From: Candidatus Omnitrophota bacterium | GTDB lineage: Bacteria > Omnitrophota > Gorgyraeia > Gygaellales > Profunditerraquicolaceae | Length of the DNA: 64,000 nucleotides | Reading direction: 5' to 3' | Assembly (NCBI GenBank): GCA_041651035.1 | Contig: JBAZKC010000001.1 | Span: forward strand, 579,244 to 643,243 | In this document: in pieces, positions 1 to 64,000 of the stretch | Layout of the letters: each line of letters starts with the position of its first letter | How positions within the stretch are numbered: the first letter of the stretch is position 1 | Position numbers and translations under genes: made by a program | Notes under the pieces: model-generated | What the model saw: the letters and a program-made list of their open reading frames with translations, nothing else | The model's database searches: none | Told to the model about the DNA's origin: nothing

Positions 1-2
1 CT

Positions 3-3000
3 ACAGAAAACAAAGATAATTCCGAATCCAAAAAAGATTTTCATCCCGGTATAGATATCGCCGCAGATAAAGGCGAAGAAGTGCTCGCTGCCCATAAGGG
101 GGTGGTAGTATCCTGCGGTTATGATAATAATCTTGGTAATTACATAACGATAGACGACGGAGAATATGTCACCAAATACGGCCATTTAGATTCTATTTTA
201 ATCAAAGAAGGTGATGAAGTAGCTGCGGGAGATATGATTGGGCTTGTAGGCGACACCGGTTTGCTTTGTACAGGGCCCCATTTGCACTTTGAAGTATACC
301 GTAGAGTTGGAAATAATTTAGTTCTCCAAGATCCCATGGCATATCTACTTGACATAGTGCCTCCGGATGAAGAGGAGCAGTTGGAAATAGCCAGGCCGAC
401 GGGAGCACTTATAAATACTCTTGATAATATCGCTCCAGACGGTATAAAGGCCGCTCCGGAGGATTTAAAGGAACAGGCTGAAAGCGCTAAAGAGGATAAA
501 GGCTGGGCAGAACTACAGACGAGGTTTAATTCCAAGGATGAAGAAGGGTTTGTCATCGTTTCTATAGAAGAAGGTAAAACGTATGAGGTGGTAAGGAAGA
601 TTCCCGATACCAGAAGGCTTTTAAAGCTTATCTATGACCCCGAAACGCAAATAATAATGTTCCCCGTGTCTTATCAGCCCAGGACGCCGGCGGAAGCAGA
701 GGGTATACTTAAGAAATGGCGTGCTGAGCCCAGCCCCAAGAAGATTGAAGAAGGAGAGAAGAAATTCCAGTATTTCTATGTCTGGATTAAGGGTGAAGAT
801 AAAGATGGCCCTTTTGAAGGCATACTGTTTGGCGGTAAAAAAGCTGCAGAAGAGAAGATGAAATTTACCGCTGATTATTTAAGCGACGCTAATTTCAAGA
901 ATAATATCATGACAGTGCTTAATATTGACGATCCGGTACTGCAGGTTGAAAAAATCAAAGAATTATTTGGCTTGGATGTTCCCGCGCCTAAAAATCCATT
1001 TGTCGCCGTAGAGGTAAAGAGAGATGAATTAGGGTTGATTATCGGCATAGAAAGATTTTATAAGGATAATGAAATCAAAAGCGGCGTGAGGAAAAATTCG
1101 CTCTTAAACCGTTCGGAATTTTATCTTAGCGGCCCCGGCGGAGAGAGAATCTGGTTGAAATACTGGCCGTTTACCGTAGACGATGTCCTGTTAACATTCA
1201 GCAAAAAGATACAGCCTGAGCTTGATGCTGAAGAAAAGGCGCCGTACCGCGGAGATGAATATTTTGAAGATGAAAAGAATCCGTTTGAAAGAGGCGAAAT
1301 CATCCTCGGCAGGGATTATCTTAAGGCTCGTTTTATAGAAACCGTGTGTTTAGACCAACTCCTTGATATGGAAAAAGAGTCTTTGAAGAAATACAACGAT
1401 TATTTAAAGAAAAAGATTATTTTAGAAGTTTTTCTTGCTGGCGCTAATATTGCTTTATCCGCTACAGGAGCGAATGTCCCGGGTGCCGCGATAACCGCTG
1501 CTGCCAGAGGCATTTTTGATTTAATTACCCGGCCGGATAAGATATTGCCCCGTGCGCCTTCAGAAGACGAGAAGAATGAATTCTTCGCTAAGTATGTATT
1601 GATGCGTGATGAATTAGAAAGGGAAAAAGGCAAGGATTACAGTTCTCTTTCTGAAGAGGAAGCAAAAGCCTGGGATGCCGAATTAGAGAAGAGATGGAAT
1701 GACTCAAACGATAAGCAAAAATATATAGAAGAAGCCAAAGGGCTTTTAAATAATTTCACCGCGGAAAATGAAGCAAAAATGTACCATTATGTTGAGCGGC
1801 GCAGCAAGGAAGGCACAGGGTTTTTTATCATGAATTTAATCTCCATAACCGCCAATATCGCAGGAAGCGTATTAAATGAGGATGTGGGGAACGCGTATAA
1901 ATATAGAGTATTAACAGATGTGCTAAATCAGAAGTATGTTTCTTTCCTGGGAGAAGTAAATATACCTCAGGTTATTTCATTAGCTAGCGGTGGCAAGGGC
2001 CTTAACTTTGTTGCCTTAAAAGACTTTGACAAAAGTTATTATTCTGTTGCCGAGAAGTTCTTTAGTATCGTAGGAGTAACTTTGGATCTTAAGTCTGTAA
2101 TTAATGATTTATATGGAATGTTCGCGCCGGTAGAGAAATCCGGGGATGTGCCTTTTACGACTGCCGCCGGTTCGCCGAGGCTGAAACTGTATATCTTTGG
2201 TTTCCCCGTGAGCCTCCTTTTTGAGAAGCAGCTGAATATAGATGTTGAGAAAGCAATTACCGGCTGGGGATTTGAAATAAAGAAAGGGTGGATTAAGTCC
2301 GAAGTCAAGGTCTATGATAGCGAAAGAGATATTGAGATGCTTCCAAAGATGGCTGTGGAAAAACGCATATCTATTGGAAAGATGGAAGTAGGAGAGAAAA
2401 GTTTGACACTGCCGGTATATTTAATCGTAGATGAAGCTCCGACTTCAGGCAGGCGTACTTTCAGGGTACTGGTGCTGGGCGAAAAAGCAGTAGAAAAGCA
2501 AAGAGAGATGATAGAGAAGGATTTGACCAGGTATGCCGATTATACAAAAGCCCTTGAAGAAGCAGGTTATGTAATCCAGGAATCTCCGTGGGGCGGGACG
2601 TATTGGCAGAGATTGTGGAATCATATGCTTATGTCCCATGATTATGAATCAGTCGGGACAACTGCATTCAGAGCAAGTAGTTATACCTGGGATAATCTTT
2701 TATATGTGCATAGATTGCTTCTTTCTGGAGATACTGCAGACGCCGATATCGCCAGGAAGAAACTGGAATTCTTTAAAGATTATGTAGAGGCCACAATGAA
2801 ATATAATAAAGAATTTAGAGGGCTTCCCGCGGCATTTAACGCTTATACCGAGAATGGCGTGGAAGGCCCGACTGTGGCTGTAACGGCGATGTTCGGGATT
2901 GAGATGCTTTATTATGAAAATCATACCGGAGATAAAAATTTCCGTTATGTTGAAGTGGATGATGGAAAGAGGAAGACTACGGTAGATGTAATAGAGGAGG

Positions 3001-6000
3001 TCAACAAGTGGCTTGCCCAGATTCAGAGAGGTTCCGAAGGAGGGGGTGGCTTAAAGTTATTTGCCACAGCCGGAGAACTCAAGAAAGTGTCGGGAGATAC
3101 TTATAGGGTCGCCGAACCGAACGCAATTGTTTATGCTTTCTATAAAGCCTATGGCAATGAAAGAAGCGCGGAGAAAATCCTTAATTGGATTGTGGATAAA
3201 GACACAATGTGGGATGGAACAAGAGGCTTAATCCGCGCTGAAGAAGGCAAGGATTTATATTCCCTTGACGCGCAGACACGTTGGATCCTGGCTCTGGGAA
3301 TTGAGCAGTTTATGAAAGAATTCAATATGAGCAATGAAGATTTTGAAGATTATCTTACCCGCATAGAAAAAGAATTCGGGGTTAAGGTAAGATATACTAT
3401 GCGTAATGGAATTGTTATAAATGACGTAGTTGGATTTGATTTAGCAGATGACTATACGGCGCGGGCATCCAGAAAAATAAACAAAAACGGGGTTGTTGAG
3501 CGGGCGATATTCCCCGAAGCCACAGGGGAAATGATTTTGGTTTATAAGATGGCTTATGAGTATTTTAAAGACGGGCAATATAAAGAAAAAGCGGAACTTT
3601 ACAATGACCAATTAGAGCGCATAGAGGATAAAAACGAATACAGCTGGCCCAGGGCAACGGAACACGCGATATACACAGGTTTTGGCATGGAAAGGACGCC
3701 TTTAGGGTTTTCTGCCATTGCCTCCGGATTGCAGATTGATATTACTGCTTATGGAGATGATGTCCTGACTCCTTTTAAGACAGAAACATTCCTGGGGACG
3801 GGCATGCCGTTATCTTCTATTACCAACGATTACAGGTGGCCAAAAGCAGAGTTAAGCCAGGATGATGTTGTTAATCCAAAGATTGTCATAGGTGAAGATA
3901 ATCGCGCGGTAATGAAAGATTTATTTGAAGTCTTAACTACCGAGAATAACTTAAGAAGGATAAATAATTCCGGAGTAGCCTTAACTGAGGAGCAGCAGCG
4001 AAGGCTTGAGGGGTTGCAACCGAGAAAAGAGCACCTTGTTTATTCTGATCCCTATGCCGGGAATCAGTTTGTCTATATTGATGAAAATGGAACAAGGAAA
4101 CGCATCGTGTTTATGTATTCATTAGATGAAATAAATGAAGGATATAAGCGTGCTCTTATCTCGTATAAGGCTGCTTTAGGATTATCCGATACCTACAAAG
4201 GAGAAACCACAAACGGAGCAGAGGTAAACGGGGCGGTGATACTTAATGAGTTGGTTAAGGTAGAAGGAAGATTAGAAGTAGGCCCGCCTATTTTGGATAA
4301 AGATGGCAATATTGTAAGGGTGGATAAAGATTATGTTAAATCCATACTTGATAAAGTAAAAGAGTTGCCTATTACCGAAAGAATCATTATCCGGTATAAG
4401 CATTTTGCTAATTTCGCGTTGGATGTAGACGGGGATGGCAAGAAAGAGCTCGTAACAGTAATTTTCCCCGTGAACAAATTGACATGGGTGGATGAATATA
4501 ATCCTATAAGTGGCGTAACTGAATTAAATGCTTATCAGGATGGGTTATGGAAATTTTCTATTAGCGAAGACAGAATTACCAGGATATTTTATGATGATAA
4601 AGAGGTAGAAACATATTCTGCGAGTTATGCCAATCCTTTCAAGGATAAGGCTAAGGCGCGGGATACAATAGGCAATGCTGCAGATGTTGACGCGTGGTTT
4701 AACGATAAGCGCATGATAGAGACGACAAAGACGGTGGAATTTTGGTATCCGGACCTAGAGAAAGAAAAGATTGACCTTGCTGCTCCGGTTATCGCGAAGT
4801 TAAAAACAAATATTAAGGGAGAAACTTCATTAGAAACCTATGGTTTATACCCTGAGCCTGTAAAGATTGTTGACGATATGTATATCACCGAGAAACAGTA
4901 TAATGATTATGGAATATTCAAGAGCTCGGTGAGCTACGATAATGGCAATAATGAGAGCGAATTCTCACGGTCGTTAACTGCTAAGCTGCTTAACCCTATT
5001 AAAGGCAAAGAGTGGTTTATCTATACCGCGGATATCCCTCAAGATAAGTTAGCAGAATTAAAGAGCCTTAAAGAATACGGATATAAGAGCACGGTTTTGA
5101 GAAAAGATTTAGCCCATGATGTAACGGATCCCCTTGTTTTTGATAATAAGCATTTTGGAAGGAAAGCGGAATACTTGTATACGGACAGACTGATTGATGC
5201 CTCCGGCAAGGCCAAGGATATTGCCGTGAAAACGGAATATTTATATTACAGTGATTTATCCGATGAGGCCAAGCGGGAACTTATAAATAGCGGCAAAGAT
5301 CCGGTTCTTTTTGAGCTCGTCCCTTATATCACGCGTGTCGTTAGCGCGAATACCGGTAAATTATTGAATGAAGTTAAAACAACCAGCTATGACGCCAATA
5401 CACGCAGGTCAGAAGGCATAGAAACAGACTACACAGGCAAGAAATCCACGAAAACCTGGGATTATAGATGGGAGAGGCCGGTTAAAATCATAAGCAGTGA
5501 TGGCAACTGGATTACGGAACTTGAGCATAACCGGGAGGAAACCAGCACTATATCTACTACTTACTATAAAGGCGAGAAAGTAATTGATTCTCTATCTGAA
5601 TATAACAAGGGAAATCATCAATGGAAACAAAACGATAAATACTTTTATTGGTGGATAAACAAAGAAACGAAAGACAAAGAAGCGAAGTTTACTTTAAATA
5701 CGGAGATCCTGCTTAGCGCTCATGGCATATTAATCCACAGGGATAGCTTGTTTAGCGATGGCATTACGAGAAGATATATTCCCGGATATGATGAGAGTGG
5801 AAGAGAGGTTTACGGCAGGGGAGACAAATCCAATCCTCAGACTAAGAACTGGGGCCATGAATTTGATTACCGCGATTATGATTGGAACAGCGGCGGGTTG
5901 ACTAGGAAAGCAGTCAATAAGATGCGCGGGGATAAATTGACCGGGGAATCATTTGACGACCAGGGCAGGGCTACAGAAGAGATACCGATTACCGTAGAAC

Positions 6001-57000: not shown

Positions 57001-60000
57001 ATAAGCCCTGCAATAATACTGATCTTAAACCGACCTTTGAGCAGCTGGATATCTTCGTTACTACCCTTATCCAAACACAGTCACACAATATCCGGCACAG
57101 GATTGGTTGTATTATTAAGCATATACTTCGCGGCGATCCCGATATTTTAATCCCGGGTCTTGCCGCTTTTAAACAGGCATATCCATATAAGTGTGTTGAT
57201 GCCCAAGAGGAATTTATTATTGCTGTTGGAAGAGCTATTAGCAGCACCCCTAAACTTTTAAATCTCGCGCTTGTTGCTATTGTCGAGACAGACTCGGATA
57301 AGGTTAGATATTGGCTTGCCCGTGCCATTAAAAATGCCCATAATTATAATACTGATTTTAAACTAACTTATGAACAGGTAAATATTCTTCGTATGGCTCT
57401 TGACCGGGCAGGCTCGGATATAGCCAGAGTTGAAATTGCCGATACTATTGGAAAAGCCTTTAGCAGAAACCCCGGGTTTAAGCCAAATCTAGAACTGTTA
57501 GATACTTTTGTTACTGTTATTAGCCGTGTAGATTTAAATGCTGCCGAGAGGGTTACGTATGCTTTTTTAAGGCTCCTGGTTAATAAGCCGGTTCTTTTAA
57601 CTCCGCTTATTGCCGTCCATACCCAGACAGGCTTAGCAGATAATGTTTGGAAGAATCTTACTTATTTTCTTATGCATGTTCTTATCTGTGACCCAAATCT
57701 CTTAGGTCCAATCCATATTATTCTTTCTCGGCCTGGCTCGGATGAGGCCTTGTATTGGTTTTCCGGAATTATTGAACAGGCTATTCTTAATGAGCCCGAT
57801 ATCTTAATCTCCATCCTTATTATGCTTACTTGGGCAGATTCGTATAGTTTACGGGAGGGGTTTACTTACGCCATTGAACAGGCACTTGGCAGAAGCTCCC
57901 AAAGGCTTATGCCCGTATTTATATCGGGGTTGGATGATCCTGAAGTCAGGATAGGCCAAGACACCAAAGAAAGGATATTTACGTATTTAGCATCTAAAGG
58001 TATCTATCCTCAAGCAGAAAAAGGCGAAGCAATGAACACTTCGTCTCCGCTGGAGCGTTCCAACTCACCTGTAACAATCCTCTCTAATTTACGGACTTTA
58101 TGGATCCGCCTTCAAATTGAATGGCATGGATCAAGGCTATGGTATAGCTCAAGACTAAAGAGAAGCTACAATCCTTATATCTGCATACGCGCAGTCAGAG
58201 CTTTAGACAAACTTGGAGATCCGGGAGCAGTTGAATATCTGGGTATGGCTTTAATTAGTCCAAATGGGGAGGTCTGTATAGGCGCAGCCGAAGCATTAGG
58301 TAATATTGGCGCCCCAGAAGCAATCCCGTTCTTGATCGATGCTTTATTACGTGATGATTCAGATTCTGATGTCTGCGAAGCGTTAGCCAAAGCCTTACTA
58401 AAAATCAACCTTACCTCTAAAAAAGCTGTTATAAGAGCTTTTAAAAAGTTAAGGCAGAAGGATATTGAAGTTTTAATAATAATTCTTACCCGAAACGGAG
58501 TAATGCCGCTAGCAGAGTTATTCTTAAATTCCGGCCGCCGCGAATTAGAAGAAGTGGCAAGAGAGTGGGCACCAAAACACAGATACGTTATTAAAGAAGA
58601 TCCGGTTACCAGACATTGGTCATTGAAACCTTCGGCCTCAAGCCCGCTAACCAGTGATTCAAAGGGAGTAGAAGCCCTTGGAAAAGAAATCAGTCCTATA
58701 ATTTCCAGCTCGCCGGTGGGTTATGGCCCTATAAGGAGAGAGCGGATAGAAAGCTATGGGGAATTTATCCGTTCAATGGGGCTCACAGCGGAAGATATCC
58801 AGAGTCTTCCTCCTAATTTAAGGCAGGTATTCTATAAGCTGAAAGATATAATTGCGGAGGCCCGCGCTATTATTTATTCTATAGAAGATATAGAAGATAT
58901 TAAAGTTGAAATTGAGCAAGAAAAAGGCATGCCCAAGAATCTCACAGATAAAATAAATGAAATTAGCAAGAGATTGAACTTGGGTGGAGTTAGATATCAT
59001 ACAAAGAAAGAGATAAAAGCTAAATTAGCCGAAGTAAGTAATGCTTTACCCGGCCAAACTTCAATTATTAAGGAGTTGTTGAGGTTGATTAGCCTCTTAG
59101 GGGAGAGATTGAGCAAATTAGAGCGGCAAATAGTTTTATTTAACCTGCGTACTGCTCAGGGCTTGGATAAGCACAGAGCCGATATTTCAAAAGGGCTCCC
59201 AGTTTCTTATTTTTCTCCCCAAGAAACCGCCGTTATATCTGCTAACCGAGAATTTCGTCTATGGAAGGAACAGGATAGAGAGTCACAATTACCCGAAAGG
59301 ATAATCAAATATCTTCAGGTATGTTTGAGTTTTCGTGTCAGAGCCCCTCCTGCGTTGAGAGATATAAATGCTATCCTTGACGATCCCCAAGTAACAAAAC
59401 TGATTGATATGCTTCTTGGTTTTGACCCCGAGTTTGATGCGCTGTCCATCCTCGAGAGATCCGCAACAGTTATTAAGATTGCCAAAGAGAACAAAATCAG
59501 CGACGATGAAAGATATATCTTTCATCTTATCAGCTTTACTCCTAGAGAATATTACTTTAGGCAAAATGTCCCTCTTCAGGTAAGAGAATATATTGCTGGG
59601 CGTATTGAGAAGGATTATGGGATAGCATTACTTAATCCTGAGACTAGGCTGGAGATTGAATTTTCCGGGGATGGAACAGAAGAAGGAGTATTTTTAAAAG
59701 CATGCTCTCTTGATGAAATAACAACTAGTGAAAGAGGAGTACCATTTTATTCGATACCCAATAAGAGGCAATTGGCAAAATGGTTTAAAGATACCTTTGG
59801 GGAATTAAAGTCAATCAAAGATAATAAAGAATACCGGGAAGCTCTAGCAATTTATAATAATTATCGTAGACATAGGATCCTTCAAGGAAGAATATATGAA
59901 CTCAAAAAACAGATTTATCGAATTACGTATAAAACCTTATCTGGAAAGACTGAATCCGTAAATTTCATTTTCTATAAAGATACTAAAACCGGTGTATTTT

Positions 60001-63000
60001 GTTCCAGCAGTTCCAGTAATTCTGCTTCTTCGCCAATAGCCTCGCCGCGCATAGCACAGCTGTTCCCAGGGTCAATCAAAGACGGCCACCAAATAGTTTT
60101 GACCAGAGAACAATTTGTGCGATGGCTGTTATGTGAGCCAAGCGGTATTTCTTATAAACTGAAGGCAGAATGGGGTAAAGCCATAGAAGAGTTTTCGTTA
60201 TTTTTTGCTGATGATTATACCCGTGACCACTGCGCCAGGGTTTTTGCTTATGCTTGGCAGATAATTGAAGAACTCCGCCGTCAGGTAAATAGAAAGAGAG
60301 AAAACGGAATAATAAGTCCTGGCAGAATAAATATAGACGTTAATTCATTGTTAATTGCTGCCCTTCTCCATGATATAGGAAAATTACAAATCCCGACAGA
60401 CATACTATGCAAGCCAAGCCGTTTGAGTGACGAAGAATTCAAGATTATACAGAGGCATCCCATCATTGGTTCGCAGATGCTTAGTTTCCTTGGGGAGATG
60501 GTTGCCAGAATGGTAAAAGAGCACCATGAAAATTATGATGGCAGCGGTTACTATGGCTTAAGATATGAAGAAAAATGCCTGGGTTCTTCAATTATCAGGG
60601 TCGCGGATACACTTGATGCCATGTTAAATGAAAGGCCCTATCAAAAATCCCATCTTTTAAGAGATGCCATCAGTGAAATTATAAATTACAGCGGCACCCG
60701 GTTTAATCCTGCGGTAGTAAAAATGCTCTCCCACCTTTACGAAACAGGTAGGCTTTTTCATTTAGTAATAACAGATGGAAACGCCAAAACGCTCTCCGTG
60801 GCTGGCCAAGACAAAAATCCCGCAGTAAGCGGCCGGGTTCACTTTGAACGGTTGATTGCTGAACTTGAAGGTGCGCAATCAGCTTGGAATAAGCAGTTAA
60901 CTATTATAGATATCGAGCAAGTCCTTATTAATAACCCTAATATATTGGTTTTGGCTCTTATCGCCTTTGGTTATGCAAAGGCATATAGTATACAGGATGG
61001 GCTTATTAATTCCATAGAGCAGTCTATTAAGCGTGCCCCAGGCAGGTTAATACCCGCATTCATCTCAGGATTAAATAATCCCTATCTTAGAAGAAAACAA
61101 GAAATCAAGGCAAGGATTCTTAATTACCTGTTAGCTAGCTCTATCTACCCCCATCGTCATTTACCCGGTTGCAATCAGCCTGAATGGGCAGCTATTCTCG
61201 CCAGTATACCGGAAGACCTATCCATGCCGTTGCTTACAGCGGATAATAATAAAGCCTATTTAGGCATCCTGCTTGCTGAAGACGATAAGGATGCCTTTAA
61301 GAAAGCCGCGTTTATAAAACTACAGGCCTACAAGAATCATATCAGAAAAACACTAGGTAAGGAATTAGGAGAAAGCCTGCCAGGGCAAGGGTCTTTATAC
61401 AGCGGCAGGTTTAGTTTGCCTTGGAAAGACTTTGTCATAGATATGAATGACCGTGCTCAAGAAATAAGCACCTCATCTCCGGTAACGATACCGCTTAATA
61501 CCGGATCAAGCCCGTTGATAGTAGCGCCAATAGAGCATCATCGGCAGGCGGCGGCCTTAATCCAGCAATACGCGCCAAAAAGAAAAGTTCCGGTGTTAAT
61601 ATTTGATTATCATTATGACGGAGGTTGGTTTTTGCATGAGGCGATAGACCCTAATCCAAATGATTTTAACTGGATAGACTTCATAAAAAGCAGGGTTGGG
61701 CAAATATATCTCTTCAGGCCATCCTGGGCAAAAGCAGAAGATTTACGCGGTTATCTAGATAGCGATGTCAAAGTGTTATATGATCCAGAAGGATTGGACT
61801 TACGCGGCCAGGAAGTAATTATTACCGTTGAGTATGATTATTTCTCGGTGAAGCTGCTTATTGATGGCACCCCCAATATTAAGAACAGGCCGGTTCCCGC
61901 CGAAATAAAAAGCAGGGCAGATCAGATAATGAGGGTCGTGAAGGAGAAAGAGCTTCGGCCATACCTATTTATTCCCTGCGAGGGGCTCGAGTATATTTAT
62001 AAGAAGGACGCTTCGGAAATTACCGAGAGCTTGTTCAGTGCTTTTTACCGAAATTTTCCTACTGCCTCTTCGCCTTGCGGCTCCAACTCGCCGGTATTTT
62101 CTGGCGTCGCTTCTTTAACCGTCGGCCAGTTGCTTAAACCTCAGGGATGTATTGCCGCGAAAGATAATATGCGTATACCGGTTTCCATGGTGCGTTTACC
62201 TATAGTGGAAGTCGGCGCATTAGATAGAGCAACAAAAGAGAAATTAGCCGTAAGTCTCCAGCGTTGGCTTGATTACAAAGGCAGGTATCCCGCGGTACAC
62301 ATTCCAGACGTATGCTTATTCATTGCTTTTCTAAAAGGAGAGCAGAAAGAAGGTGAAGAGATATTCCGGGCACTCTTGGAAAAAGAATCGCAGTTGTATT
62401 GCGCAATATCTTATCGTAATTCCCAATTGGAGACAGAAGGCTGGGTCCACATTAATATAAGTGACCGCAGCCGGATGAGTACCACAGTAATTAGGCCGGC
62501 ACTTATGGAGATAGCTCCATGGAACAGAGGTGATACTGCCGCAACTCCTTATTTTAGCGGAGTAGGCACGCAATTAAGAACTTTTGGTATCAGACTATTA
62601 CTTGAAGGTATGGAAGGCCATCGTGATCCATTTATCTACGGATGTATTCAAACCCTGGGTTTCCGCAGCGAAAAGGAAGATGTGTTTTCAGAGGGTGTTG
62701 ATCAGGGATATATTGAGGAATACTTTGGGGGCGCAAAATATACCGAACAAGAAGGCATAGATCAATATGGTTGTCTGGAAGAATGCCTTTGCCGTTTGCC
62801 GGTGACTCCGCTCAGGACTGATGATGAGCGAAGTCAAGCCAGCAGCAGCTCGCCGGTGACAGATTTTACCCGCAGTAAAGATTTTAAGACTGCACGTGTA
62901 TTAGATAGGATTAAGAATGAATTGGTTGATCTTGATGTCAGGCTCCATAGCAGCGAAACAGGCAATTTTGAGGCCCTGCGGCAGGAGTTGCGGACGTGGC

Positions 63001-64000
63001 TTGATTATAAAGATGGAAATCGGCAATTCGATACTTTTAAAACCGAGGAGGGGCAAATACGCCGGATCCCGTTTTTGCGAGACATCGTAACAAAGATTGT
63101 CAACGATGGCTTTGCCCCGAACGAAGTAATTATCGGAATATGGGATAACAATAATAAGCTCATCGCGTTCCAAAGAGCTGTAATGGAATTCCATAAGAAA
63201 GATCCTTTACGATTAAGAAGAACTCTTGCGATAGCAACTGCTGCGGCGCCATTTGTCCGTAAAACAAAACAATATGATACCGGCACGTTAATAATGGCTT
63301 TATTTAAAGCCGGCATATTATTTAACAGAATGTACGGTATACAGGTGATGCGTGGTACTACAGTCAATAAAGAAATTCTAAACCATCTTGTTAAACACGG
63401 TGCCCGAATATCTAAAACGATATTTAAAGGAGAGCCATGTTACATTTATGTTTTGCAAAGTATGCAGGTAAATACATATCTGAAATTTTGCAACCGGGTG
63501 GAGAAACTTTATGATAGCGGTAAATTTATCGATTATTTTAGGTTGATTCCGGAAGGAAATAATGATGAATTACCGATTCCACAAGCAATGGCTCATATCA
63601 GAATACGCTTAGGGCAAGGATCAAGAGCTAATATAGGAGGCTTGGGCAAAGACGCAGTTAGTTTACAAAGGGTTTTAAATTTAGAAGAATTTAACCACAG
63701 GGCTATTGATAGGCTCATTTTTACCGATGAATCATTTACTAGGGCCGGATTGCGGGGGGACTTGAAGGGGCCAAAGTTTAGAGATGGATTTGTTCTTCAG
63801 CTCTACAAGGAATCTCCATTTTTGTTTTCGGTGGTAGACAAACAAAGAGGAATAATAGGTATAGATGCTGCCCTTGAGAGAATAAGGCCGCTTGCTTTCA
63901 GAAGAATATTGATAGCGGTAGGCATTCAGCATTACCTGAGGGAAATATTCAGTAAAGACTGCCTCAGGGATATTATCAAAGAAGATATTAAGCATACTTT
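3..64000 (+). CDS. Internal fragment of one giant multidomain ORF, partial at both window edges (at least 21,332 codons in view). It carries cell-wall-binding and hydrolysing domains, membrane-spanning blocks and a chain of carbohydrate-metabolism enzyme domains.
   Basis: Codon-by-codon reading of frame 3 (codon starts at positions divisible by 3) found no in-frame TAA, TAG or TGA across the window. Recognisable protein motifs occur along its whole length. The ORF track has no frame-3 plus-strand entry, consistent with an ORF open at both edges, and all other-frame and minus-strand ORFs are short (196 aa or less). Confidence 0.85.
30..330 (+). other. M23 / LytM-family metallopeptidase domain (peptidoglycan endopeptidase fold)
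   Basis: Translation HPGIDIAADKGEEVLAAHKGVVVSCGYDNNLGNYITIDDGEYVTKYGHLDSI...GDTGLLCTGPHLHFEVY contains the HxxxD and HxH zinc-ligand motifs of the M23 family. Confidence 0.8.
8245..8315 (+). other. Single transmembrane helix followed by a Lys/Arg-rich stop-transfer stretch
   Basis: AWGLLLLPVFLVAVWFYNWMKGKRKEKKN: about 20 hydrophobic residues, then a basic cluster. Confidence 0.55.
9780..10350 (+). other. Polytopic membrane block (about 5-6 predicted TM helices)
   Basis: Long hydrophobic runs, e.g. TVLCIGGIGLIIGAILAYVSPLWVGTAVILASILGSLGILAI, LIPIVTVMIAAGLCFIFASTYLAIGTALISLGVMVSPLIL and IFWASIFSITSLYVFGVLTHFLFW...FIFTAGLVLLSFIPTLMSVYHVIIA. Confidence 0.55.
12320..13500 (+). other. Second polytopic membrane block (6 or more TM helices) ending in a Ser-rich low-complexity linker
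   Basis: Hydrophobic runs LFLFFHYFGAIFSLALLMTLPFISPFSAFAF, FLMAMAFTVKDIIIALPVFVFLIPYFF, LLGLIGIAGWLVNLFTV...IIILYLAAGIVFLSGMYVCGAF and VFIFRAIIRTITVLMAFVIGFGPALL...LLFISLPLMVFVGSFF, followed by ADSSSSSLSSPSVSSSPLVSP. This linker holds the first occurrence of the SSSP punctuation motif. Confidence 0.55.
14050..15110 (+). other. UDPGP-family (UTP-sugar-1-phosphate uridylyltransferase-like) nucleotidyltransferase domain, copy 1 (divergent)
   Basis: AEIVSAGGTSGRFFGYKV...KGHIPLVIMGSGNN...IHQANGDNVGAILD resembles the L(A/N)GG(Q/L)GT(R/S)(L/M)G pyrophosphorylase signature and the later family motifs. Assignment is from memory only. Confidence 0.35.
15600..16170 (+). other. Histidine-phosphatase (phosphoglycerate-mutase-like) domain with Arg to Pro in the RHG motif
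   Basis: LVIVPHGLTDADVEG...YYSGVNRTVQTAQAF...IIFGHGIFIKAV matches the branch-1 histidine phosphatase pattern (RHGxT ... R ... GH). Here the motif reads PHG instead of RHG. Confidence 0.5.
16325..18210 (+). other. Transketolase-like domain (TPP-binding, pyrimidine-binding and C-terminal parts) with the catalytic histidines replaced; probably non-catalytic
   Basis: GPLAGSMSVVELYTVLF...IIPKGSAASTLYAAAALTG...GSLEQGIGLALSG...LSDGSMQLGIDHQAKFAAHMKLNNLAVVIDINY aligns to the TktA N-terminal motifs (GHPG, SxGHGS, GPLGQG, GDGCxMEG, DDN). The two conserved His positions read G and S here. A TK C-terminal-like segment PVVFIVSGKTVLEALKAGQTLRSMGISFRIFNI follows. Confidence 0.55.
18600..19060 (+). other. 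Alpha-helical HEAT/armadillo-like repeat segment
   Basis: Periodic Leu/Ala-rich helices, e.g. ILLGRRIEILGRIGSVEGIEAILDALADSAV...IALNAIVNIGKPAVPYLKKHINDSRRPVRQTISLALSRI, resemble PBS-lyase HEAT repeats. Confidence 0.35.
20350..21590 (+). other. Phosphofructokinase domain, PPi-dependent type (GGDD signature)
   Basis: IHRIAVLTGGGPASGHN...LVTCGGDDTN...PKTMDNDI...VEVFGRNAGFVAM reproduces the PFK family motifs (GGGPAPG-N, GGDGS/GGDDS, PKTIDND, MGR). GGDD with GGGPA is typical of PPi-PFKs. Confidence 0.75.
21640..22170 (+). repeat. Module copy 1: signal-peptide-like hydrophobic segment (AFA-HY) - LysM-like domain - Pro/Lys-rich spacer - TM helix
   Basis: LLTFSLTALLFIFSFFPTSAFA HYFKDTPQGRVAVVEEWSSKDPQVNTLGGIGKDILEARGEEATLEALYGKDGNSGIVRELKDVNNLPTDLVSPGQEIKVP, then SYLLWALFGGAVICLGSAFLLILGKFKSKKK. 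About 235 bp (21,690-21,925) are roughly 90% identical at the DNA level to 31,008-31,243. Confidence 0.7.
22290..23990 (+). other. UDPGP-family (UTP--glucose-1-phosphate uridylyltransferase-like) domain, copy 2
   Basis: VSCHPMDGGLGTGV...IAEIKFLRV...FYNGDGIANFP...KAGLDKKGGQIG...NTNIALINYSVL and a C-terminal beta-helix-like tail are consistent with the eukaryote-type UGPase/UDPGP fold (GGLGT motif). Confidence 0.5.
25900..26090 (+). other. Pair of TM helices
   Basis: LTPLIGLTLLFSACIVI and YGLLFAFVVAFLPLYLAPI hydrophobic runs. Confidence 0.4.
26215..26990 (+). other. Class I SAM-dependent methyltransferase domain with an N-terminal Cys4 zinc-ribbon
   Basis: CVICGSKN...CRLVKCNECGLVC (zinc ribbon), then LLDIGAAFGYFLVAARNAGWQVIGTEIS...FDVITLFDVLEHF...KKDGVLLLRVP (MTase motifs I, II and post-II). 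Confidence 0.65.
27180..28800 (+). other. Glycogen/starch-synthase-like GT-B glycosyltransferase domain (GlgA-like), with the KTGGL lysine replaced (QVGGIADV)
   Basis: N-terminal FYVFEIPESQVGGIADVAMGLPEEI aligns to the GlgA KTGGLGDV/ADV motif. The C-terminal half (RLVSQKGISLFVDGAKQI...LVLGGPPE...INLFPSLYEPCGTVGKAAINMDVTIARLTGGIRESATE) matches the GT4/GT5 C-terminal E-x7-E region. Confidence 0.6.
28840..30735 (+). other. Alpha-glucan (glycogen/maltodextrin) phosphorylase domain, GT35 short type; the PLP-binding Lys position appears to be Arg
   Basis: ANTKGGLGAYFGDKLEGLAKIGMQAFGIQPAYS (GGLGxLAGD), LHLNEAHTVVAAA (NEGHAA), VYTNHTVVPPGMEIF and RRIVDYKSQYPML. EACGTSHQRTALNGG aligns to EASGTSNMKxxxNG, with R at the Schiff-base Lys position. 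Confidence 0.65.
30955..31500 (+). repeat. Module copy 2: signal-peptide-like segment (AFA-HY) - LysM-like - Pro/Lys/Gln-rich spacer - TM helix
   Basis: LAVFILTVLLTIFSFLPTPAFA HYFKDTPQGRVAVVEEWSSKDPQANTLSGIGKDMLEARGEEATLEALYGKDGNSGIVRELKGANNLSTDQIYPGQELKLP ... IHIFWAVISVLFTGILIYLGKILLIKILRK. A near-identical DNA stretch occurs at 21,690-21,925. Confidence 0.7.
31520..33330 (+). other. Phosphoglucomutase / phosphomannomutase family domain (all four signature motifs intact)
   Basis: IKFGTSGWRW; catalytic-Ser loop FTASHNPGKGY; metal-binding GVACDADADRNGIVD; sugar-binding LVAGEESQG; phosphate-binding tail IRFSGTEPVVRLY. Confidence 0.8.
33600..35470 (+). other. Glucose-6-phosphate isomerase (PGI)-like SIS-domain segment
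   Basis: IIIIKIGIGGQH...VIPSSKSGSTDESMMVF resemble the PGI signatures (G-I-G-G-S and SKSGTT-ET). Domain length of about 600 aa fits PGI. Confidence 0.55.
36130..36245 (+). other. Internal Tat/lipoprotein-like signal segment (RRxFxK twin-arginine-like motif and lipobox-like ISAC)
   Basis: VETTRRTFVKLSLAAAGALELLPISACSRE sits immediately downstream of the punctuation motif NSSSSPVKKE. It looks like the N-terminus of an independent secreted lipoprotein but lies mid-ORF. Confidence 0.45.
37600..38480 (+). other. Membrane block (several TM helices, two clusters)
   Basis: VVDLFVAATLFGIYLVYPGVALLKPVVLFFTYYI, AGLLFLFIEKAL, LIFFGSLTVLSFI, LYTIFMGFSCLFPFLFS and later FFIGFTLLACSISAIIYLLISVSSSIILIGISLVFPFMLAFFAY. 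Confidence 0.45.
40505..40885 (+). repeat. Three tandem copies of a 126-bp (42-aa) in-frame repeat
   Basis: YIRYCLPVLLAKTRNMSKLRAWNQEIITWIKDYQYT / YVRNCLPVLLDRVRDIDELNAWNKAIMKLIQTYKEM / YVKNTLPVLLSRAKDIAELDSWSEEMMKLLEE, with matching DNA-level similarity (gcctgcctgttttatta recurs). Confidence 0.7.
41200..41630 (+). other. SAM-dependent methyltransferase-like Rossmann domain (second of three)
   Basis: RVLWIGPGRGYELYELLYLI...FDVIVVGHDV...LKQDGVAFADLYL: glycine-rich motif I, acidic motif II and a post-II loop. Confidence 0.4.
41880..43100 (+). other. GH13 (alpha-amylase superfamily) catalytic-domain-like segment
   Basis: ELLPYLRNSGAAGIYLYGGLFPQS (region I-like), AKLGMKVYVDFIPWL, GVRGLRADLAAYM (region II GFRxDAA with the catalytic Asp) and WIMEAYE (region III Glu candidate). 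Confidence 0.5.
44835..46850 (+). other. 1,4-alpha-glucan branching enzyme domain (GlgB, GH13_9) with intact catalytic triad motifs and an inserted KE-rich tandem repeat
   Basis: [21 protein letters not shown] (CBM48), VYELHLGSW, IGVIIDWVPAHF, IDGLRVDAVASMIY, ILTIAEESTNWPGVS, MKWGMGWMHD, LALSHDEVVHGKGS and a C-terminal all-beta tail VYLTLPPLGMTVLKRR. Confidence 0.85.
46019..46072 (+). repeat. 18-bp x3 tandem repeat (gaaaggcttgagaaagag-like) encoding ERLEKE KRLEKE GRLEKK, inserted in the GlgB catalytic domain between the WPGVS and MKWGMGW motifs
   Basis: Three consecutive near-identical 18-mers are visible directly in the sequence. Confidence 0.85.
49320..49900 (+). other. Class I SAM-dependent methyltransferase domain (third copy) containing a 24-bp x2 tandem duplication
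   Basis: KILSIGCGFCELEEV...VIGLDISFEMIN...FNAVVFSESLGHM...ANYVLVAGGELFITT. An internal repeat atgcttaaggccggccgctttgag / atgtttaaggctggccgcgatgaa at 49,575-49,622 encodes MLKAGRFE MFKAGRDE. Confidence 0.6.
50070..50680 (+). repeat. Cassette: punctuation motif - Trp-rich helix (LHWYIWKL) - PBS-lyase-type HEAT repeats (first of four such cassettes)
   Basis: RSSSPLNINSEPLIYVQLHWYIWKL...VRANAAKILGNIG...VRAKAARALGRLRAAEAADFLINALDDLFWVVRLAAVIALGRLGETKAIERLL...IRAEAAKALGNLGAAEA...VRKTAGLAL. Similar cassettes occur near 51,500-51,840, 55,230-55,500 and 58,040-58,420. Confidence 0.6.
50820..50950 (+). repeat. Two direct copies of a 45-bp element about 78 bp apart (cgcctatttaatttnctgcgcntgccagg)
   Basis: VRRLFNLLRMPGRLRK ... 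IQRLFNFLRVPGLFKR are visible at both the DNA and protein level. Confidence 0.6.
52025..52470 (+). other. TPR repeat domain (about 4 repeats)
   Basis: AIGMFTRAIELDPACLDAYEARGYIYFNRGEYKEAIVDFNKVIEFNPRYTVVYNDRGRAFYYLERYKEAAADFTTVIKLKPNSVNAYIGRGAACYYLGKYEEARADFCEAFKLNPKN is a canonical 34-aa TPR periodicity. It is preceded by a signal-peptide-like FFISLFLAFIIPIMSATSLA QEK. Confidence 0.75.
53685..53970 (+). repeat. Tandem duplication (about 150 bp) encoding a hydrophobic TM hairpin
   Basis: SLPFTFCMLYFAYNKINAYKSTRLRLSLSAAGILSSAISLITGSG / YLPFTFCMFYFINASKSIKLGLSLATAGILSSAISLITGGG; the DNA is near-identical over about 120 bp. Confidence 0.7.
55900..58000 (+). repeat. Array of a novel alpha-solenoid repeat family (unit about 40 aa, consensus x-x-E/Q-R-L-A-G-x-I/F-E/D-Q-x-L-x-N-x-P-D/E-L-x-P-T-F-E/K-Q-L), organised into larger modules with conserved start and end cap motifs
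   Basis: Units: IGERLAGYIKQLFYHKSDFKPTFKQLSFLISIF, IQERLAGTIERILCNNPDLRLTQKQFDNLVAVF, IRQKLAGVFDQALSNEPEIIPIIVQDRLIGVF, IRHRIGCIIKHILRGDPDILIPGL. Start caps: SWKLFEIVRNIGESLLDNSELLEPVISVFLWAK and NWEQYQIAIEIEDDLIDNVNLLTPILNVILRTK. End caps: IEQAINRNPESLMPVFILGLSDPDVRK and IEQALGRSSQRLMPVFISGLDDPEVR. A third short module lies at 60,880-61,130. Confidence 0.55.
60200..60760 (+). other. HD-GYP-like phosphohydrolase domain (variant signature HHENYDGSGYYG)
   Basis: HCARVFAYAWQII...LLIAALLHDIGKLQIP...IIQRHPIIGSQML...VKEHHENYDGSGYYGL...IIRVADTLDAM matches the HD and HHExxDGxGYP motifs of HD-GYP c-di-GMP phosphodiesterases, with GYY in place of GYP. Confidence 0.6.

Follow-up and report, generated by a model that had tools for sequence, protein, structure and literature searches.

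Internal fragment of a giant Candidatus Omnitrophota gene encoding a string of sugar-metabolism enzymes, probably threaded across the membrane

The window (the whole 64,000-nt stretch of DNA analysed here) is occupied by a single open reading frame in frame 3 of the plus strand (3..63998; 21,332 codons). It has neither a start nor a stop inside the window and represents an internal fragment of a giant gene with a minimum length of 63,996 nt and 21,332 codons, for a product of 2.41 MDa or more; the frame runs off the window on either side. Programmatic six-frame translation found 0 stop codons in this frame over the 64,000 nt, against 1,368 expected in 21,332 codons from the base composition (log10 P of no stop about -614). 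The other five frames held 1,592, 2,002, 718, 1,590, and 1,061 stops, and the longest open stretch among them was 618 nt. The coding signature was GC1 > GC3 > GC2 along 16 consecutive 4-kb bins, marginal in the bin at aa 5333 (GC3 0.344, GC2 0.359), and the purine fraction at codon position 1 was 0.59-0.70 in the same bins. These results confirmed an earlier sequence-only reading, which had proposed one uninterrupted frame over the whole 64 kb and a gene running past both ends of the window; the codon-position signature proved uniform along the frame. The first and last family-matched domains lie at aa 13 (nt 39, M23 peptidase) and aa 20246 (nt 60,740, HD-GYP). Family searches of the last ~1,100 aa gave no match, and the coding signature persists there.

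The encoded chain is organised in three zones. Zone 1 (aa 1-2743) holds an M23 peptidoglycan peptidase, which is intact, and behind it ~2,600 aa without detectable homologues in the part searched, aa 1-1200. Zone 2 (aa 2744-4444) consists of a single membrane anchor and a pair of 6-helix bundles. In zone 3 (aa 4445 to the end), some dozen full-length enzymes of sugar and glycogen metabolism are arranged in a string, together with HEAT/TPR scaffolds and paired transmembrane (TM) hairpins. Pfam scans retrieved more than 20 distinct families, a sugar module included, with only HEAT and TPR repeated, and self-BLAST displayed few internal duplications in the protein. Dockerin, TSP3, Ig-like, and cadherin-like repeats were not found in the Pfam scans of the window, and scanning unannotated stretches in 600-1,200-aa pieces at E <= 0.5 returned almost nothing for aa 100-4450 and 11,100-13,650. 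The sequence-only reading had described the known examples of such genes as mostly adhesin- or repeat-rich; the present chain is not of that type, being largely non-repetitive and consisting of different full-length metabolic enzymes plus membrane segments.

The M23 peptidoglycan metalloendopeptidase (aa 13-123; 39..371; Pfam PF01551, E = 8.5e-27) keeps both the HxxxD (HPGIDIAA) and the HxH (HLHFE) motifs, matches 5kqb/ShyA/lysostaphin in the PDB (E down to 2e-14), and is predicted to be extracytoplasmic. Behind it lies a "dark" region of ~2,600 aa (aa 124-2743; 372..8231), also predicted outside the cytoplasmic membrane, with no family match, no copy of the SSP motif described below, and, apart from M23, no homologues for the searched aa 1-1200.

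By hydropathy, ~30-40 segments of the 21,332 aa are hydrophobic enough for a TM helix. The first is a single anchor (aa 2744-2762; 8232..8288; hydropathy 1.84), followed by KGKRKEKK, a stop-transfer-like stretch on the predicted cytoplasmic side (6 K/R among the next 15 aa). Two bundles of 6 predicted TM helices come next: bundle 1 (aa 3261-3430; 9783..10292), where the K/R alternation fits the positive-inside rule, and bundle 2 (aa 4112-4444; 12336..13334), directly after which the first SSP motif appears at aa 4479. M23 and the enzymes are consequently separated by 1+6+6 = 13 helices, and from there on the helices come in pairs up to aa ~12,800 (7215/7368, 8632/8670, 10321/10472, then four at 12536-12824), their enzyme-side flanks being rich in K/R. 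From this simple hydropathy and positive-inside analysis, which leaves several hydrophobic segments beyond aa 13,900 ambiguous, we infer that M23 lies outside and that the enzymes depending on NTP, PPi, SAM, or ThDP lie inside the cytoplasm. These sides agree with what the chemistry of the wall-lytic domain and of the cofactor-dependent enzymes requires.

Among the paired helices, membrane hairpin A (aa 7215-7386; 21645..22160) comprises a signal-anchor-like TM, a LysM-like loop of ~130 aa, and a second TM followed by KFKSKKK. A tight TM hairpin was predicted by hydropathy at aa 8632-8688 (25896..26066), and hairpin B (aa 10321-10490; 30963..31472) is a paralogue of hairpin A, with a loop 81% identical in protein and with 300 nt at 85% identity in DNA. 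We compared the loops (aa 7236-7325 and 10341-10430) with PF01476 and the beta-alpha-alpha-beta LysM fold. Pfam LysM matched the hairpin B loop at E = 0.0025 and that of A at E = 0.12, both below threshold and over the C-terminal half only; phmmer against LysM-bearing M23 proteins gave E = 6e-4 in a tiny database; and an AF2 model of the loop (pLDDT 78.6) had LysM as all of its top 8 Foldseek PDB matches (E = 0.26-1). As these three weak lines are concordant and none is significant, we name the loops only LysM-like. Finally, the four predicted TM helices at aa 12536-12824 stand between zincin-like HExxH motifs at aa 12436 and aa 12881 (whole region 37308..38771), with weak Pfam matches (Tox-MPTase2 E = 0.027, DUF2268 E = 0.087), and we consider this region a candidate for membrane-proximal metalloprotease modules.

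The enzyme string opens with a divergent UDP-glucose pyrophosphorylase-like cassette, a (aa 4485-5153; 13455..15461; Pfam UDPGP E = 8e-6; PDB 2oef E = 1.9e-6). A histidine-phosphatase (PGAM-like) domain (aa 5204-5379) and a transketolase-like domain (aa 5447-6025) follow at 15612..18077, sharing one SSP-bracketed cassette (aa 5154-6078; Pfam His_Phos_1 1.2e-13, Transketolase_N 2e-11). The transketolase-like domain also matches the split transketolase 6yak in the PDB (1e-22) and the NCBIfam transketolase at 7.8e-49, below the cut-off. Key residues are altered in both domains, RHG to PHG in the PGAM-like one and GDG to SDG in the transketolase-like one.

The phosphofructokinase (PFK) cassette of 413 aa (aa 6781-7193; 20343..21581; Pfam PFK 1.4e-52; PDB 44xa/9dqm ~1e-25) has an SSP 5 aa before its domain and another 28 aa after it, and the GGDD, PKTMDND, and catalytic TMDND motifs are present. 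The signature of PPi-dependent PFK we take to be Asp at the E. coli-104 position (GGDD), Lys at 124 (PKTxDND), and the catalytic Asp127; by these signature motifs, the cassette would be a PPi-type phosphofructokinase. Its NCBIfam score was 198 vs. a cut-off of 253, so that it displays the fold and the PPi-type signature and falls outside the equivalog. A second UDP-glucose pyrophosphorylase-like cassette, b (aa 7398-8053; 22194..24161; Pfam UDPGP 2.2e-9), has 329 relatives, including stand-alone proteins of ~600 aa and modules in other Omnitrophota giant ORFs, and its best matches are UTP--glucose-1-phosphate uridylyltransferases of Ca. Omnitrophota. Next comes a 2H-phosphoesterase-like cassette (aa 8322-8599; 24966..25799) with two H-x-S-L motifs, a weak Pfam match (2_5_RNA_ligase2, E = 0.008), and a low-confidence AlphaFold model (pLDDT 34.6). 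It is 51% identical to a module of the Omnitrophota protein MDD5109533.1, and its motifs are kept in the relative P0243.

After a SAM-dependent methyltransferase domain (aa 8823-8968; 26469..26906; Pfam Methyltransf_23 2.3e-21), the string turns to glucan synthesis. The glycogen/starch synthase (GT5+GT1) cassette of 553 aa (aa 9045-9597; 27135..28793; Pfam Glyco_transf_5 3.8e-30; NCBIfam glgA 3.5e-49) keeps the R/K and EPCG motifs, has SQVGGI in place of KxGGL, and is 48-60% identical to modules at 5 loci from Omnitrophota genomes and 3 from metagenomes. Directly behind it, a second GT-B cassette, alpha-glucan-phosphorylase-like or GT5-like (aa 9598-10243; 28794..30731), matched NCBIfam TIGR02094 at 4.1e-20, below the cut-off, and Pfam GT5 at 1e-11, with 56% identity to a module of the metagenome locus L007. 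The phosphoglucomutase (PGM) cassette (aa 10509-11105; 31527..33317; Pfam PGM_PMM I-IV; PDB 9vfy 1e-23) retains 4/4 signature loops intact (TASHNP, DADADR, GEES, and RFSGTEP).

In the second half, an SSP-bracketed CheR-like SAM methyltransferase cassette of 237 aa (aa 13696-13932; 41088..41798; Pfam CheR 3e-5, below the cut-off) is followed by a full-length 1,4-alpha-glucan branching enzyme, GlgB, of 719 aa (aa 14903-15621; 44709..46865; PDB 5gqw 4e-199). GlgB exceeds the NCBIfam equivalog cut-offs (NF003811, 843 bits vs. 741; TIGR01515, 785 bits vs. 464), presents GH13 regions I-IV intact with the catalytic Asp/Glu/Asp (DWVPAHF, GLRVDAV, AEES, SHDEV), and is 52-55% identical to stand-alone GlgB from many phyla. 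It carries an insertion, (RLEKE)3, that stems from an 18-nt tandem repeat at 46021-46070. A partial, divergent domain resembling class II fructose-1,6-bisphosphatase, GlpX (aa 15724-15938; 47172..47816; Pfam FBPase_glpX 4.4e-16; NCBIfam glpX 3e-9, below the cut-off), precedes another SAM methyltransferase cassette, of 266 aa (aa 16424-16689; 49272..50069; Pfam Methyltransf_11 7.5e-9). The HEAT/TPR scaffolds (aa ~16690-18500; 50070..55502; Pfam HEAT_2 1.6e-76, TPR_1 3.2e-17; PDB alphaRep/CTPR) are broken by ~6 hydrophobic segments at aa 17830-18131, and HEAT repeats recur in a block at aa 19384-19465 (58152..58397). The last matched domain is an HD-GYP-type phosphohydrolase (aa 20075-20246; 60225..60740; Pfam HD_5 5.2e-22; PDB 4mcw 1.7e-18) with the motif HD ... 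HHExxDGxGY and a sub-cut-off match to the NCBIfam c-di-GMP phosphodiesterase NosR family (2e-23). The enzymes form a coherent pathway from glucose-phosphate to branched glycogen, together with a PPi-linked upper glycolysis. Apart from GlgB, most enzyme cassettes score under the NCBIfam family cut-offs; given this and the altered key residues, some modules need not be active.

Between these cassettes recurs a short seam motif, [S/A/T]-S-S-P-[L/V/I], with 54 copies (13437..62855; first at aa 4479, last at aa 20949) against 4.3 +/- 2.1 expected; among 4-mers, SSSP shows the strongest over-representation (Poisson 1e-35). The motif is confined to the enzyme string, with zero copies before aa 4479, and 0/54 copies fall inside domains (13.1 expected, P = 3e-7). 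It often appears as doublets or triplets at 11-18 aa spacing, with SSPLGAL(h)xT as an extended form. Its position marks the natural ends of enzymes and sets the cassettes apart with unusual clarity: the termini of stand-alone GlgB (n = 73) project to aa 15617 and the SSP stands at 15622, and those of stand-alone UGP-like proteins (n = 38) project to aa 8035 with the SSP at 8036. In the relatives L003, L004, L007, and P0243, the motif is kept at the same seams, in L007 and P0243 with a different cassette order. Synonymous codons vary within it, which points to selection at the peptide level and argues against a DNA-level explanation. As a separate observation, the motif codons are biased to AGC-TCG-CCG.

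Relatives of two different cassettes came, wherever named, from Ca. Omnitrophota/Omnitrophica MAGs at 48-70% identity, and a 2,301-aa query matched only two partial Omnitrophota proteins. Six of the eight related loci (5 genome loci and L007) were 100% stop-free across 2.5-21.6 kb, and the shared module sits in a giant ORF at all of them. The pointer to Omnitrophota made from the sequence alone is thereby borne out, indirectly but consistently, each named close relative being a Candidatus Omnitrophota MAG. L007 and P0243 share cassettes with the window and order them differently, GC3 varies by cassette from 0.275 to 0.535, and the SSP-bracketed lengths agree with those of stand-alone enzymes (PFK 413, GlgA 553, GlgB 719, and methyltransferase 266 aa). 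Judged from these comparisons, the cassettes are most likely complete, once stand-alone proteins that were fused head to tail, and their order has been shuffled.

The reading we favour, with a probability of roughly 80%, is that the window is an internal slice of one real Ca. Omnitrophota giant gene of the "Archaeovorin" or "multi-enzyme metabolic cluster" class, encoding a membrane-threaded string of enzymes. Translation of the gene would yield a single polypeptide, 2.4 MDa or larger, threaded across the cytoplasmic membrane. The chain N-terminal to aa 2744 would lie outside, with an active-looking M23 cell-wall endopeptidase and 2.6 kaa that probably serve at the surface or in prey contact, where a link to predation may be suspected. 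After the 13 helices, the chain would be back in the cytoplasm, where complete enzymes follow one another. PGM, UGPase-like, two GT-B glucan synthase/phosphorylase modules, and GlgB could convert glucose-phosphate to glycogen, and the PPi-type PFK, GlpX-like FBPase, transketolase, and PGAM-like modules could act in upper glycolysis, gluconeogenesis, and the pentose-phosphate pathway, with methyltransferases, the HD-GYP domain, and HEAT/TPR scaffolds scattered between the sugar enzymes. The paired TM hairpins –two with a LysM-like outer loop– would pin the string to the membrane and leave its side unchanged. Substrates might be channelled, for instance PPi from the UGPase-like modules supplying the PPi-PFK. 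The net result would be a membrane-tethered, stoichiometric sugar-handling assembly line joined to an external head that attacks cell walls.

The same anatomy is compatible with a polyprotein, the sole difference being the fate of the chain: the giant ORF would be translated once and cut at the SSP seams by the built-in HExxH modules (aa 8049-8321 and 12310-13019) or a host protease. Soluble enzymes (the 413-aa PFK, the 719-aa GlgB) and hairpin-anchored ones would be released at fixed stoichiometry, as from an operon in one frame. This proposal is in line with the seam motif, which is in excess, stays outside domains, coincides with the natural ends of the ancestral enzymes, recurs at matching seams in relatives, and is limited to the predicted cytoplasmic string, and with the HExxH motifs of the window protein (3 vs. 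0.34 expected, 2 adjoining membrane helices). Moreover, authors in the field suspect cleavage of giant proteins and call the cleavage points unknown. However, the family matches of the HExxH modules are weak (E = 0.03-0.09), we know of no protease specificity that fits the SSP motif, and a flexible Ser/Pro linker would suffice as an explanation. The seam motif as a universal junction was rejected: most other giant fragments with the UGP-like cassette lack SSP enrichment, and they mostly have no equivalent over-represented 4-mer either. The motif is specific to a clade and thus cannot be a general processing signal of giant proteins. Overall, processing into separate enzymes is possible and rather unlikely.

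We regard the seams as candidate linker or processing sites. More tentatively, and with considerable doubt, they could be functional signals that define exchangeable units in this clade, either as polyprotein cleavage sites or as junctions for the capture and shuffling of enzyme genes. If this were true, the seams would be the cleavage points missing so far and would account for the growth of giant genes. The seam motif is absent from the main texts of the two preprints on these proteins (West-Roberts et al. 2023; Nielsen & Lui 2026), and the survey of Nielsen & Lui includes no linker or seam motif and no analysis of cassette boundaries. It offers concrete processing sites for proteomics or heterologous expression and a comparative-genomics marker of enzyme capture and reshuffling.

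A second alternative, proposed for such proteins in 2023, would place most of the chain outside the cell, the sugar domains included, as an effector or adhesin that attaches to prey and breaks down or pre-processes carbohydrates of the cell wall. TMHMM-based localisation placed most domains of such proteins outside (West-Roberts et al. 2023), which differs from the enzyme side suggested by the topology here, and the side of the metabolic content was left open by Nielsen & Lui (2026). In a 147-kAA protein, DeepTMHMM put the metabolic content on the outer (periplasmic) face; the giant protein of V. archaeovorus is up-regulated in attached cells; and the window itself contains an M23 peptidase and LysM-like loops. 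Yet West-Roberts et al. themselves doubted such extracellular calls, and the 13 helices that separate M23 from the enzymes, the pairs that follow to aa ~12,800, and the K/R-rich flanks on the enzyme side all speak for the cytoplasm. PFK, PGM, UGPase, GlgA, transketolase, SAM-methyltransferases, and HD-GYP depend on PPi/NTP, NDP-sugars, ThDP, SAM, or c-di-GMP, which are cytoplasmic metabolites. We therefore find an extracellular string improbable.

At the technical level, the frame could have been produced by a chimeric misassembly, by corrected or collapsed frameshifts, or by stops lost to sequencing error, or the window could be an operon-like unit with internal starts. An exact 60-mer of the window start had no match in the GTDB-representative and JGI metagenome collections, which leaves some room for this. 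Nevertheless, error cannot produce 0 stops where 1,368 are expected, and the same architecture recurs in six stop-free loci that different projects assembled independently, as well as in published complete long-read genomes. The window DNA is essentially non-repetitive (its repeats are two pairs, of 300 nt at 85% and of 97 nt at 86% identity, and three very short tandem arrays), which makes a collapsed-repeat artefact unlikely and leaves no long repeat able to mislead the assembler. Internal starts find no better ground: Met is missing from the cassette N-termini, Shine-Dalgarno-like sites with an in-frame start codon are at chance level (37 vs. 35.1 expected), the scan of nt 1-20000 showed no excess of promoter- or terminator-like sites over chance, and Rfam and tRNA searches of the window detected no embedded RNA genes. 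An artefact is thus highly improbable. A recoded genome, in which stop codons read as sense would make ordinary genes only appear fused, is refuted by the complete absence of TAA, TAG, and TGA from frame 3, where a reassigned codon should occur, and by the full-length, motif-intact enzymes that table 11 yields.

With the favoured reading of one membrane-threaded giant gene product, one of the closest known systems is Archaeovorin, whose type sequence is a 39,678-aa protein of Velamenicoccus archaeovorus LiM (West-Roberts et al. 2023, bioRxiv 10.1101/2023.11.21.568195). Shared traits are the phylum, a giant single ORF, many TMs, and HEAT, TPR, GT5, GT1, SAM methyltransferases, a peptidase, FBPase, and PGM/PMM. 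By domain content, the window matches the co-occurrence seen in Archaeovorin with GT5+GT1, three methyltransferases, GH13 GlgB, M23, HEAT_2, and TPR. Archaeovorin also has a NUDIX hydrolase domain and, in its N-terminal region, a C39 or S8 peptidase together with a signal peptide, and divergent SecA_DEAD or SecA preprotein-binding domains occur in "most" giant genes (West-Roberts 2023). No C39/S8 domains lie inside the window, and SecA_DEAD and NUDIX had no Pfam match there; all of these may lie in the parts of the gene outside it. Conversely, the branching enzyme, UGPase, PFK, transketolase, M23, and LysM-like loops of the window are absent from the main text of West-Roberts 2023.

The window also belongs to the Class 1 "multi-enzyme metabolic cluster" proteins (Nielsen & Lui 2026), of which it represents a fragment only, of at least 21 kaa. 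Both display many Pfam families with none dominant (PF08323, PF00534, PF02878-80, methyltransferase, HD), TM helices over ~2% of residues, a unique sequence within a conserved architecture, and a sugar-metabolism module. Chlorobium chlorochromatii giants, dockerin/TSP3-type Omnitrophota giants, and RTX/Bap-like adhesins share extreme length and a symbiotic or epibiotic association, whereas the window is mainly built from distinct enzymes and not from tandem repeats.

Other likenesses are analogies only. In the modular megasynthases NRPS and type I PKS and in the eukaryotic fusions AROM, CAD, and FAS, pathway enzymes also follow each other as consecutive modules with short conserved linkers and module shuffling. 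Unlike them, the window has neither carrier domains nor covalent hand-over, its enzymes are those of ordinary primary metabolism, and its chain is membrane-threaded, 5-50 times longer, and without sequence relationship. Viral and retroelement polyproteins, a parallel to the cleavage alternative, likewise have one ORF, full-length proteins without their own start or stop, and recurrent junction motifs; in the window, however, cleavage is hypothetical, no confident protease of matching specificity was found, and the gene belongs to a cellular bacterium.

Giant Omnitrophota genes rank with the largest genes in biology and raise questions about their function, the membrane side of their enzymes, and a possible cutting of their products. 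For each of these questions the window is a clean example, with a coherent sugar pathway, a helix parity consistent with the predicted chemistry, and ancestral boundaries marked by a motif. The giant gene itself is no longer new, and the window adds a member to a kind already described in this phylum.

Regarding size, the window ORF (at least 63,996 nt, 21,332 codons) exceeds both thresholds in use for giant genes, >20 kb (Seymour 2023) and >=10 kAA (Nielsen & Lui 2026). The maximum known in Omnitrophota was 85,804 aa in 2023 (West-Roberts et al. 2023) and has since risen to 147,155 aa, with 348 proteins of >=30,000 aa (Nielsen & Lui 2026, bioRxiv 10.64898/2026.06.07.730766). The sequence-only view that genes of >60 kb are extremely rare in prokaryotes stands for prokaryotes as a whole and fails within Omnitrophota, where they are now known to be common; thus, size alone no longer makes the window exceptional for its phylum. 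Giant proteins of Omnitrophota carry ~1 TM helix per 400-500 aa, and 94% of the long ones have a TM or signal peptide; with its ~30-40 hydropathy segments, the window also shares their richness in TM helices.

At the DNA level, a programmatic six-frame scan found no TAA, TAG, or TGA in plus-strand frame 3 across the 64,000 nt. This confirmed the sequence-only reading, which had described a stop-free frame throughout the window and a giant gene open at both ends; the window holds 21,332 codons of it, with the translation open at either window edge, and the overall interpretation was supported as a real finding. Base composition alone predicted 1,368 stops in this number of codons (log10 P about -614), and the remaining five frames held 718-2,002 stops, with 618 nt as their longest open stretch. 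The order GC1 > GC3 > GC2 held in all 16 consecutive 4-kb bins, being marginal only in the bin of aa 5333 (codon of frame 3 within the window), and 59-70% of first codon positions were purines across the bins. Frame 3 is coding over the full window length. Its translation has a normal amino-acid composition and a mass of 2.41 MDa for the window portion. No Rfam or tRNA matches were found in the window, promoter-like and terminator-like sites were as frequent as chance predicts in the 20 kb searched for them, and Shine-Dalgarno-like sequences with an in-frame start also numbered as expected by chance (37 vs. 35.1).

We built a domain map from Pfam, NCBIfam, and PDB-sequence searches. It starts with an M23 peptidase (aa 13-123), a stretch with no detectable family (aa 124-2743, window 372-8231), a single hydrophobic anchor (aa 2744-2762), and two six-helix bundles (aa 3261-3430 and 4112-4444). 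The enzyme string after aa 4445 contains two UDP-glucose-pyrophosphorylase-like (UGP-like) cassettes (aa 4485-5153 and 7398-8053), a histidine-phosphatase (PGAM-like) domain (aa 5204-5379, window 15612-16139), a transketolase-like domain (aa 5447-6025), a phosphofructokinase (PFK; aa 6781-7193, window 20343-21581), a 2H-phosphoesterase-like cassette (aa 8322-8599, window 24966-25799), a glycogen synthase with GT5 and GT1 (GlgA; aa 9045-9597, window 27135-28793), an alpha-glucan-phosphorylase-like GT-B module (aa 9598-10243), a phosphoglucomutase (PGM; aa 10509-11105), GlgB (aa 14903-15621), a GlpX-like FBPase (aa 15724-15938), and HD-GYP (aa 20075-20246). Methyltransferases lie at aa 8823-8968, 13696-13932 (CheR-like), and 16424-16689, and HEAT/TPR arrays at aa ~16690-18500 and 19384-19465. 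A second family-free stretch (aa 11106-13695, window 33318-41087) matched no family by Pfam or PDB sequence, and aa 1-1200 returned nothing homologous outside the M23 domain when searched against 5.8 billion proteins. Self-BLAST detected few internal duplications, and the predicted giant product is not a repeat protein. Tyr, Asp, Glu, and Lys are more frequent in aa 124-2743 than in the enzyme string, and Leu, Gln, and Cys less frequent.

Regarding enzyme integrity, GlgB reached 843 bits, above the NCBIfam equivalog cut-off (741), matched solved GlgB structures at E=4e-199, and shared 52-55% identity with ordinary 630-760-aa GlgB proteins from many phyla. Direct reading found GH13 regions I-IV all intact, and from its sequence this cassette is a full-length branching enzyme. 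The other cassettes scored under the NCBIfam cut-offs. Direct reading also recovered TASHNP, DADADR, GEES, and RFSGTEP in PGM, HxxxD and HxH in M23, and HD...HHExxDGxGY in HD-GYP. PFK carries GGDD and PKTMDND, which we take to be the signature of PPi-dependent enzymes, with PPi over ATP as phosphoryl donor; this PPi-type PFK shares its polypeptide with the two UGP-like cassettes, predicted to release PPi.

Some catalytic motifs are modified. In the PGAM-like domain PHG replaces the catalytic RHG, and the domain may be inactive or functionally altered; in the transketolase-like domain SDG replaces GDG. In the GlgA-type cassette, the canonical KxGGL reads SQVGGIADV. P0121, the giant-gene homologue that aligns most closely, has the same Lys to Gln change, and SQVGGI is conserved among the Omnitrophota homologues of this cassette (loci L001-L004 and L007). 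The change may point to a different donor-sugar specificity. The 2H-like cassette had a weak Pfam match to 2',5'-RNA-ligase/2H-phosphoesterase and an AlphaFold model too poor to use (pLDDT 34.6); its two H-x-S-L motifs (LHVSL and THISL) are both kept in the Omnitrophota protein MDD5109533.1.

The cassettes are joined by a short seam. The tripeptide SSP occurs 54 times (window 13437-62855, aa 4479-20951) against 4.3 +/- 2.1 in shuffles, about 13-fold, with the site consensus [S/A/T]-S-S-P-[L/V/I], and SSSP is the top over-represented 4-mer of the window protein (Poisson 1e-35). Several features mark the SSP sites as cassette boundaries. All copies lie from aa 4479 on, only in the predicted cytoplasmic string, and none of the 54 falls inside the 14 domain envelopes, where 13.1 were expected (P=3e-7). 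The bracketed lengths are normal enzyme sizes (PFK 413, GlgA 553, GlgB 719, and methyltransferases 237-266 aa). The C-termini of 73 stand-alone GlgB proteins project to aa 15617 (IQR 15615-15619), with an SSP at 15622, and those of 38 stand-alone UGP-like proteins to aa 8035 (IQR 8033-8039), with an SSP at 8036. The seams coincide with where the ancestral enzymes naturally end, and the PFK domain starts 5 residues past a seam without a Met. Synonymous codon variation at the motif points to selection at the peptide level. Codon usage there is biased towards AGC-TCG-CCG: TCG, a rare codon for Ser (8.7% overall), fills 35% of the second-Ser positions, and CCG 50% of the Pro positions. Within one ORF, full-length and mostly motif-intact enzymes are joined at conserved seams, without starts or stops of their own.

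Neither the GTDB representative genomes nor the JGI metagenome collection contains an exact 60-mer taken from the window. Among relatives, the GlgA-like cassette showed 40-60% identity to five genome loci, four labeled Candidatus Omnitrophota and one 'bacterium', and it also matched three metagenome loci. For the UGP-like cassette, 329 relatives were found in a set of 1.84 billion representatives; among those with names, the Ca. Omnitrophota MAG proteins MFA5350852.1 (70%) and MDD5109533.1 (60%) rank best. The five genome loci and the metagenome locus L007 had no stop in the matching frame over their full length (2.5-21.6 kb), so homologous cassettes sit within giant ORFs in independent assemblies, which speaks strongly against an artefact. 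On the short metagenome contigs L006 and L008, ends of genes or changes of frame were seen.

Across these relatives, the cassettes appear in shuffled order. The closest long one, L007 (Ga0172370_10000016, 1-21614 of a 202-kb contig, 21.6 kb stop-free), carries three tandem UGP-like cassettes, 34-37% identical to that of the window, also has the GlgA and GT-B cassettes, differently arranged, and has ~2,600 aa between cassettes that adjoin in the window; the related protein P0243 has two cassettes in reversed order. Relatives sharing seams differ from the window in cassette order or copy number, and the motif recurs, conserved, at corresponding seams in L003 (aa 435), L004 (aa 3326), L007 (aa 3329/3868 and 6470), and P0243 (aa 725/1017/1647). 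Strict copies numbered 45 in the window (0.19 expected), 11 in L007 (0.06), and 5 in L004 (0.05); the motif is also enriched in P0243 and P0247, and SSSP tops the over-represented 4-mers in L007. It is absent in most other giant fragments bearing the same cassette, and this putative seam signal is clade-specific. Per-cassette GC3 ranged from 0.275 (aa 4485-5153) to 0.535 (GlgB and PFK), the binomial SD being about 0.025. Such a spread of >10 binomial SDs between neighboring cassettes of one gene suggests that they differ in evolutionary origin or age, compatible with a mosaic origin.

Membrane topology was predicted from hydropathy and the positive-inside rule. KGKRKEKK comes directly after the first anchor (aa 2744), both bundles have six helices with K/R-rich loops in regular alternation, and 13 helices separate the M23 domain from aa 4445. 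Later helices come in pairs (7215/7368, 8632/8670 in a tight hairpin at aa 8632-8688, and 10321/10472) or in fours (aa 12536-12824), and it is their enzyme-side flanks that carry K/R; hydrophobic segments past aa ~13,900 are ambiguous. This helix parity would place the M23 peptidoglycan hydrolase outside and all modules that depend on PPi, NTP, NDP-sugar, ThDP, SAM, or c-di-GMP inside, the predicted location being the one that their chemistry requires. Hairpins A (aa 7215-7386, window 21645-22160) and B (aa 10321-10490, window 30963-31472) are paralogous, with 81% identical loops. Each opens with a helix that resembles a signal anchor and ends in AFA, followed by a ~130-aa loop, a Pro/Lys/Glu-rich spacer, a second helix, and a K-rich stretch; the LysM signals of the outer loops were weak, concordant, and non-significant.

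At the functional level, we infer an assembly threaded through the membrane, its wall-lytic head lying outside and its string of enzymes inside. From hexose phosphates, this string would make NDP-glucose and branched glycogen via PGM, UGP-like, GlgA, and GlgB, with the phosphorylase-like module for the reverse direction, and would tie this route to PPi-dependent upper glycolysis. More speculatively, PPi from the pyrophosphorylase reaction could be used by the PPi-type PFK.

We compared the gene with earlier giant-gene literature, including a 2023 paper (PMC10066038). West-Roberts et al. 2023 (bioRxiv 10.1101/2023.11.21.568195) reported giant proteins of up to 85,804 aa and defined the 'Archaeovorin' type, with HEAT, GT5, GT1, TPR, methyltransferases, peptidases, NUDIX, FBPase, PGM/PMM, and many TM helices; they suspected cleavage, at unknown points. 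Nielsen & Lui 2026 (bioRxiv 10.64898/2026.06.07.730766) described 3,650 proteins of at least 10 kAA (maximum 147,155 aa). Most proteins in their survey are unique in sequence, and 94% have a TM segment or a signal peptide. One of their classes, the 'multi-enzyme metabolic clusters', includes a sugar module (PF08323, PF00534, and PGM), and the authors do not decide between a cytoplasmic and a periplasmic side for the metabolic content. The window agrees with this class on each feature testable within it, and the giant gene belongs to a kind already known. SecA_DEAD, NUDIX, and N-terminal C39/S8 peptidases were not found within the window and could lie beyond its ends. The main texts of both preprints make no mention of linkers or motifs. 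What our analysis adds is the coherent glycogen/sugar-phosphate pathway content, the parity-based topology argument, and the clade-specific seam motif, through which cleavage of giant proteins, and its position, becomes directly testable. Three zincin-like HExxH motifs (0.34 expected) at window 24639, 37308, and 38643 (aa 8213, 12436, and 12881) are possible built-in processing proteases; the last two flank the four-helix cluster, and the site at aa 12881 weakly matches Tox-MPTase2 and DUF2268, predicted Zn proteases.

Finally, DNA repeats in the window comprise a 300-nt pair (85%) from hairpins A and B, the sole sizeable one, a 97-nt pair, three small tandem arrays, and otherwise almost none. 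An 18-nt tandem repeat of 2.8 copies (window 46021-46070) encodes a (RLEKE)3-like charged insertion (aa ~15340-15356); in the catalytic domain of GlgB, it falls between GH13 regions III and IV. The 97-nt direct repeat (86%, copies 138 nt apart, window 53733-53967, aa ~17911-17989) lies inside the HEAT/TPR region and encodes two similar hydrophobic segments (GILSSAISLITGSGILG).
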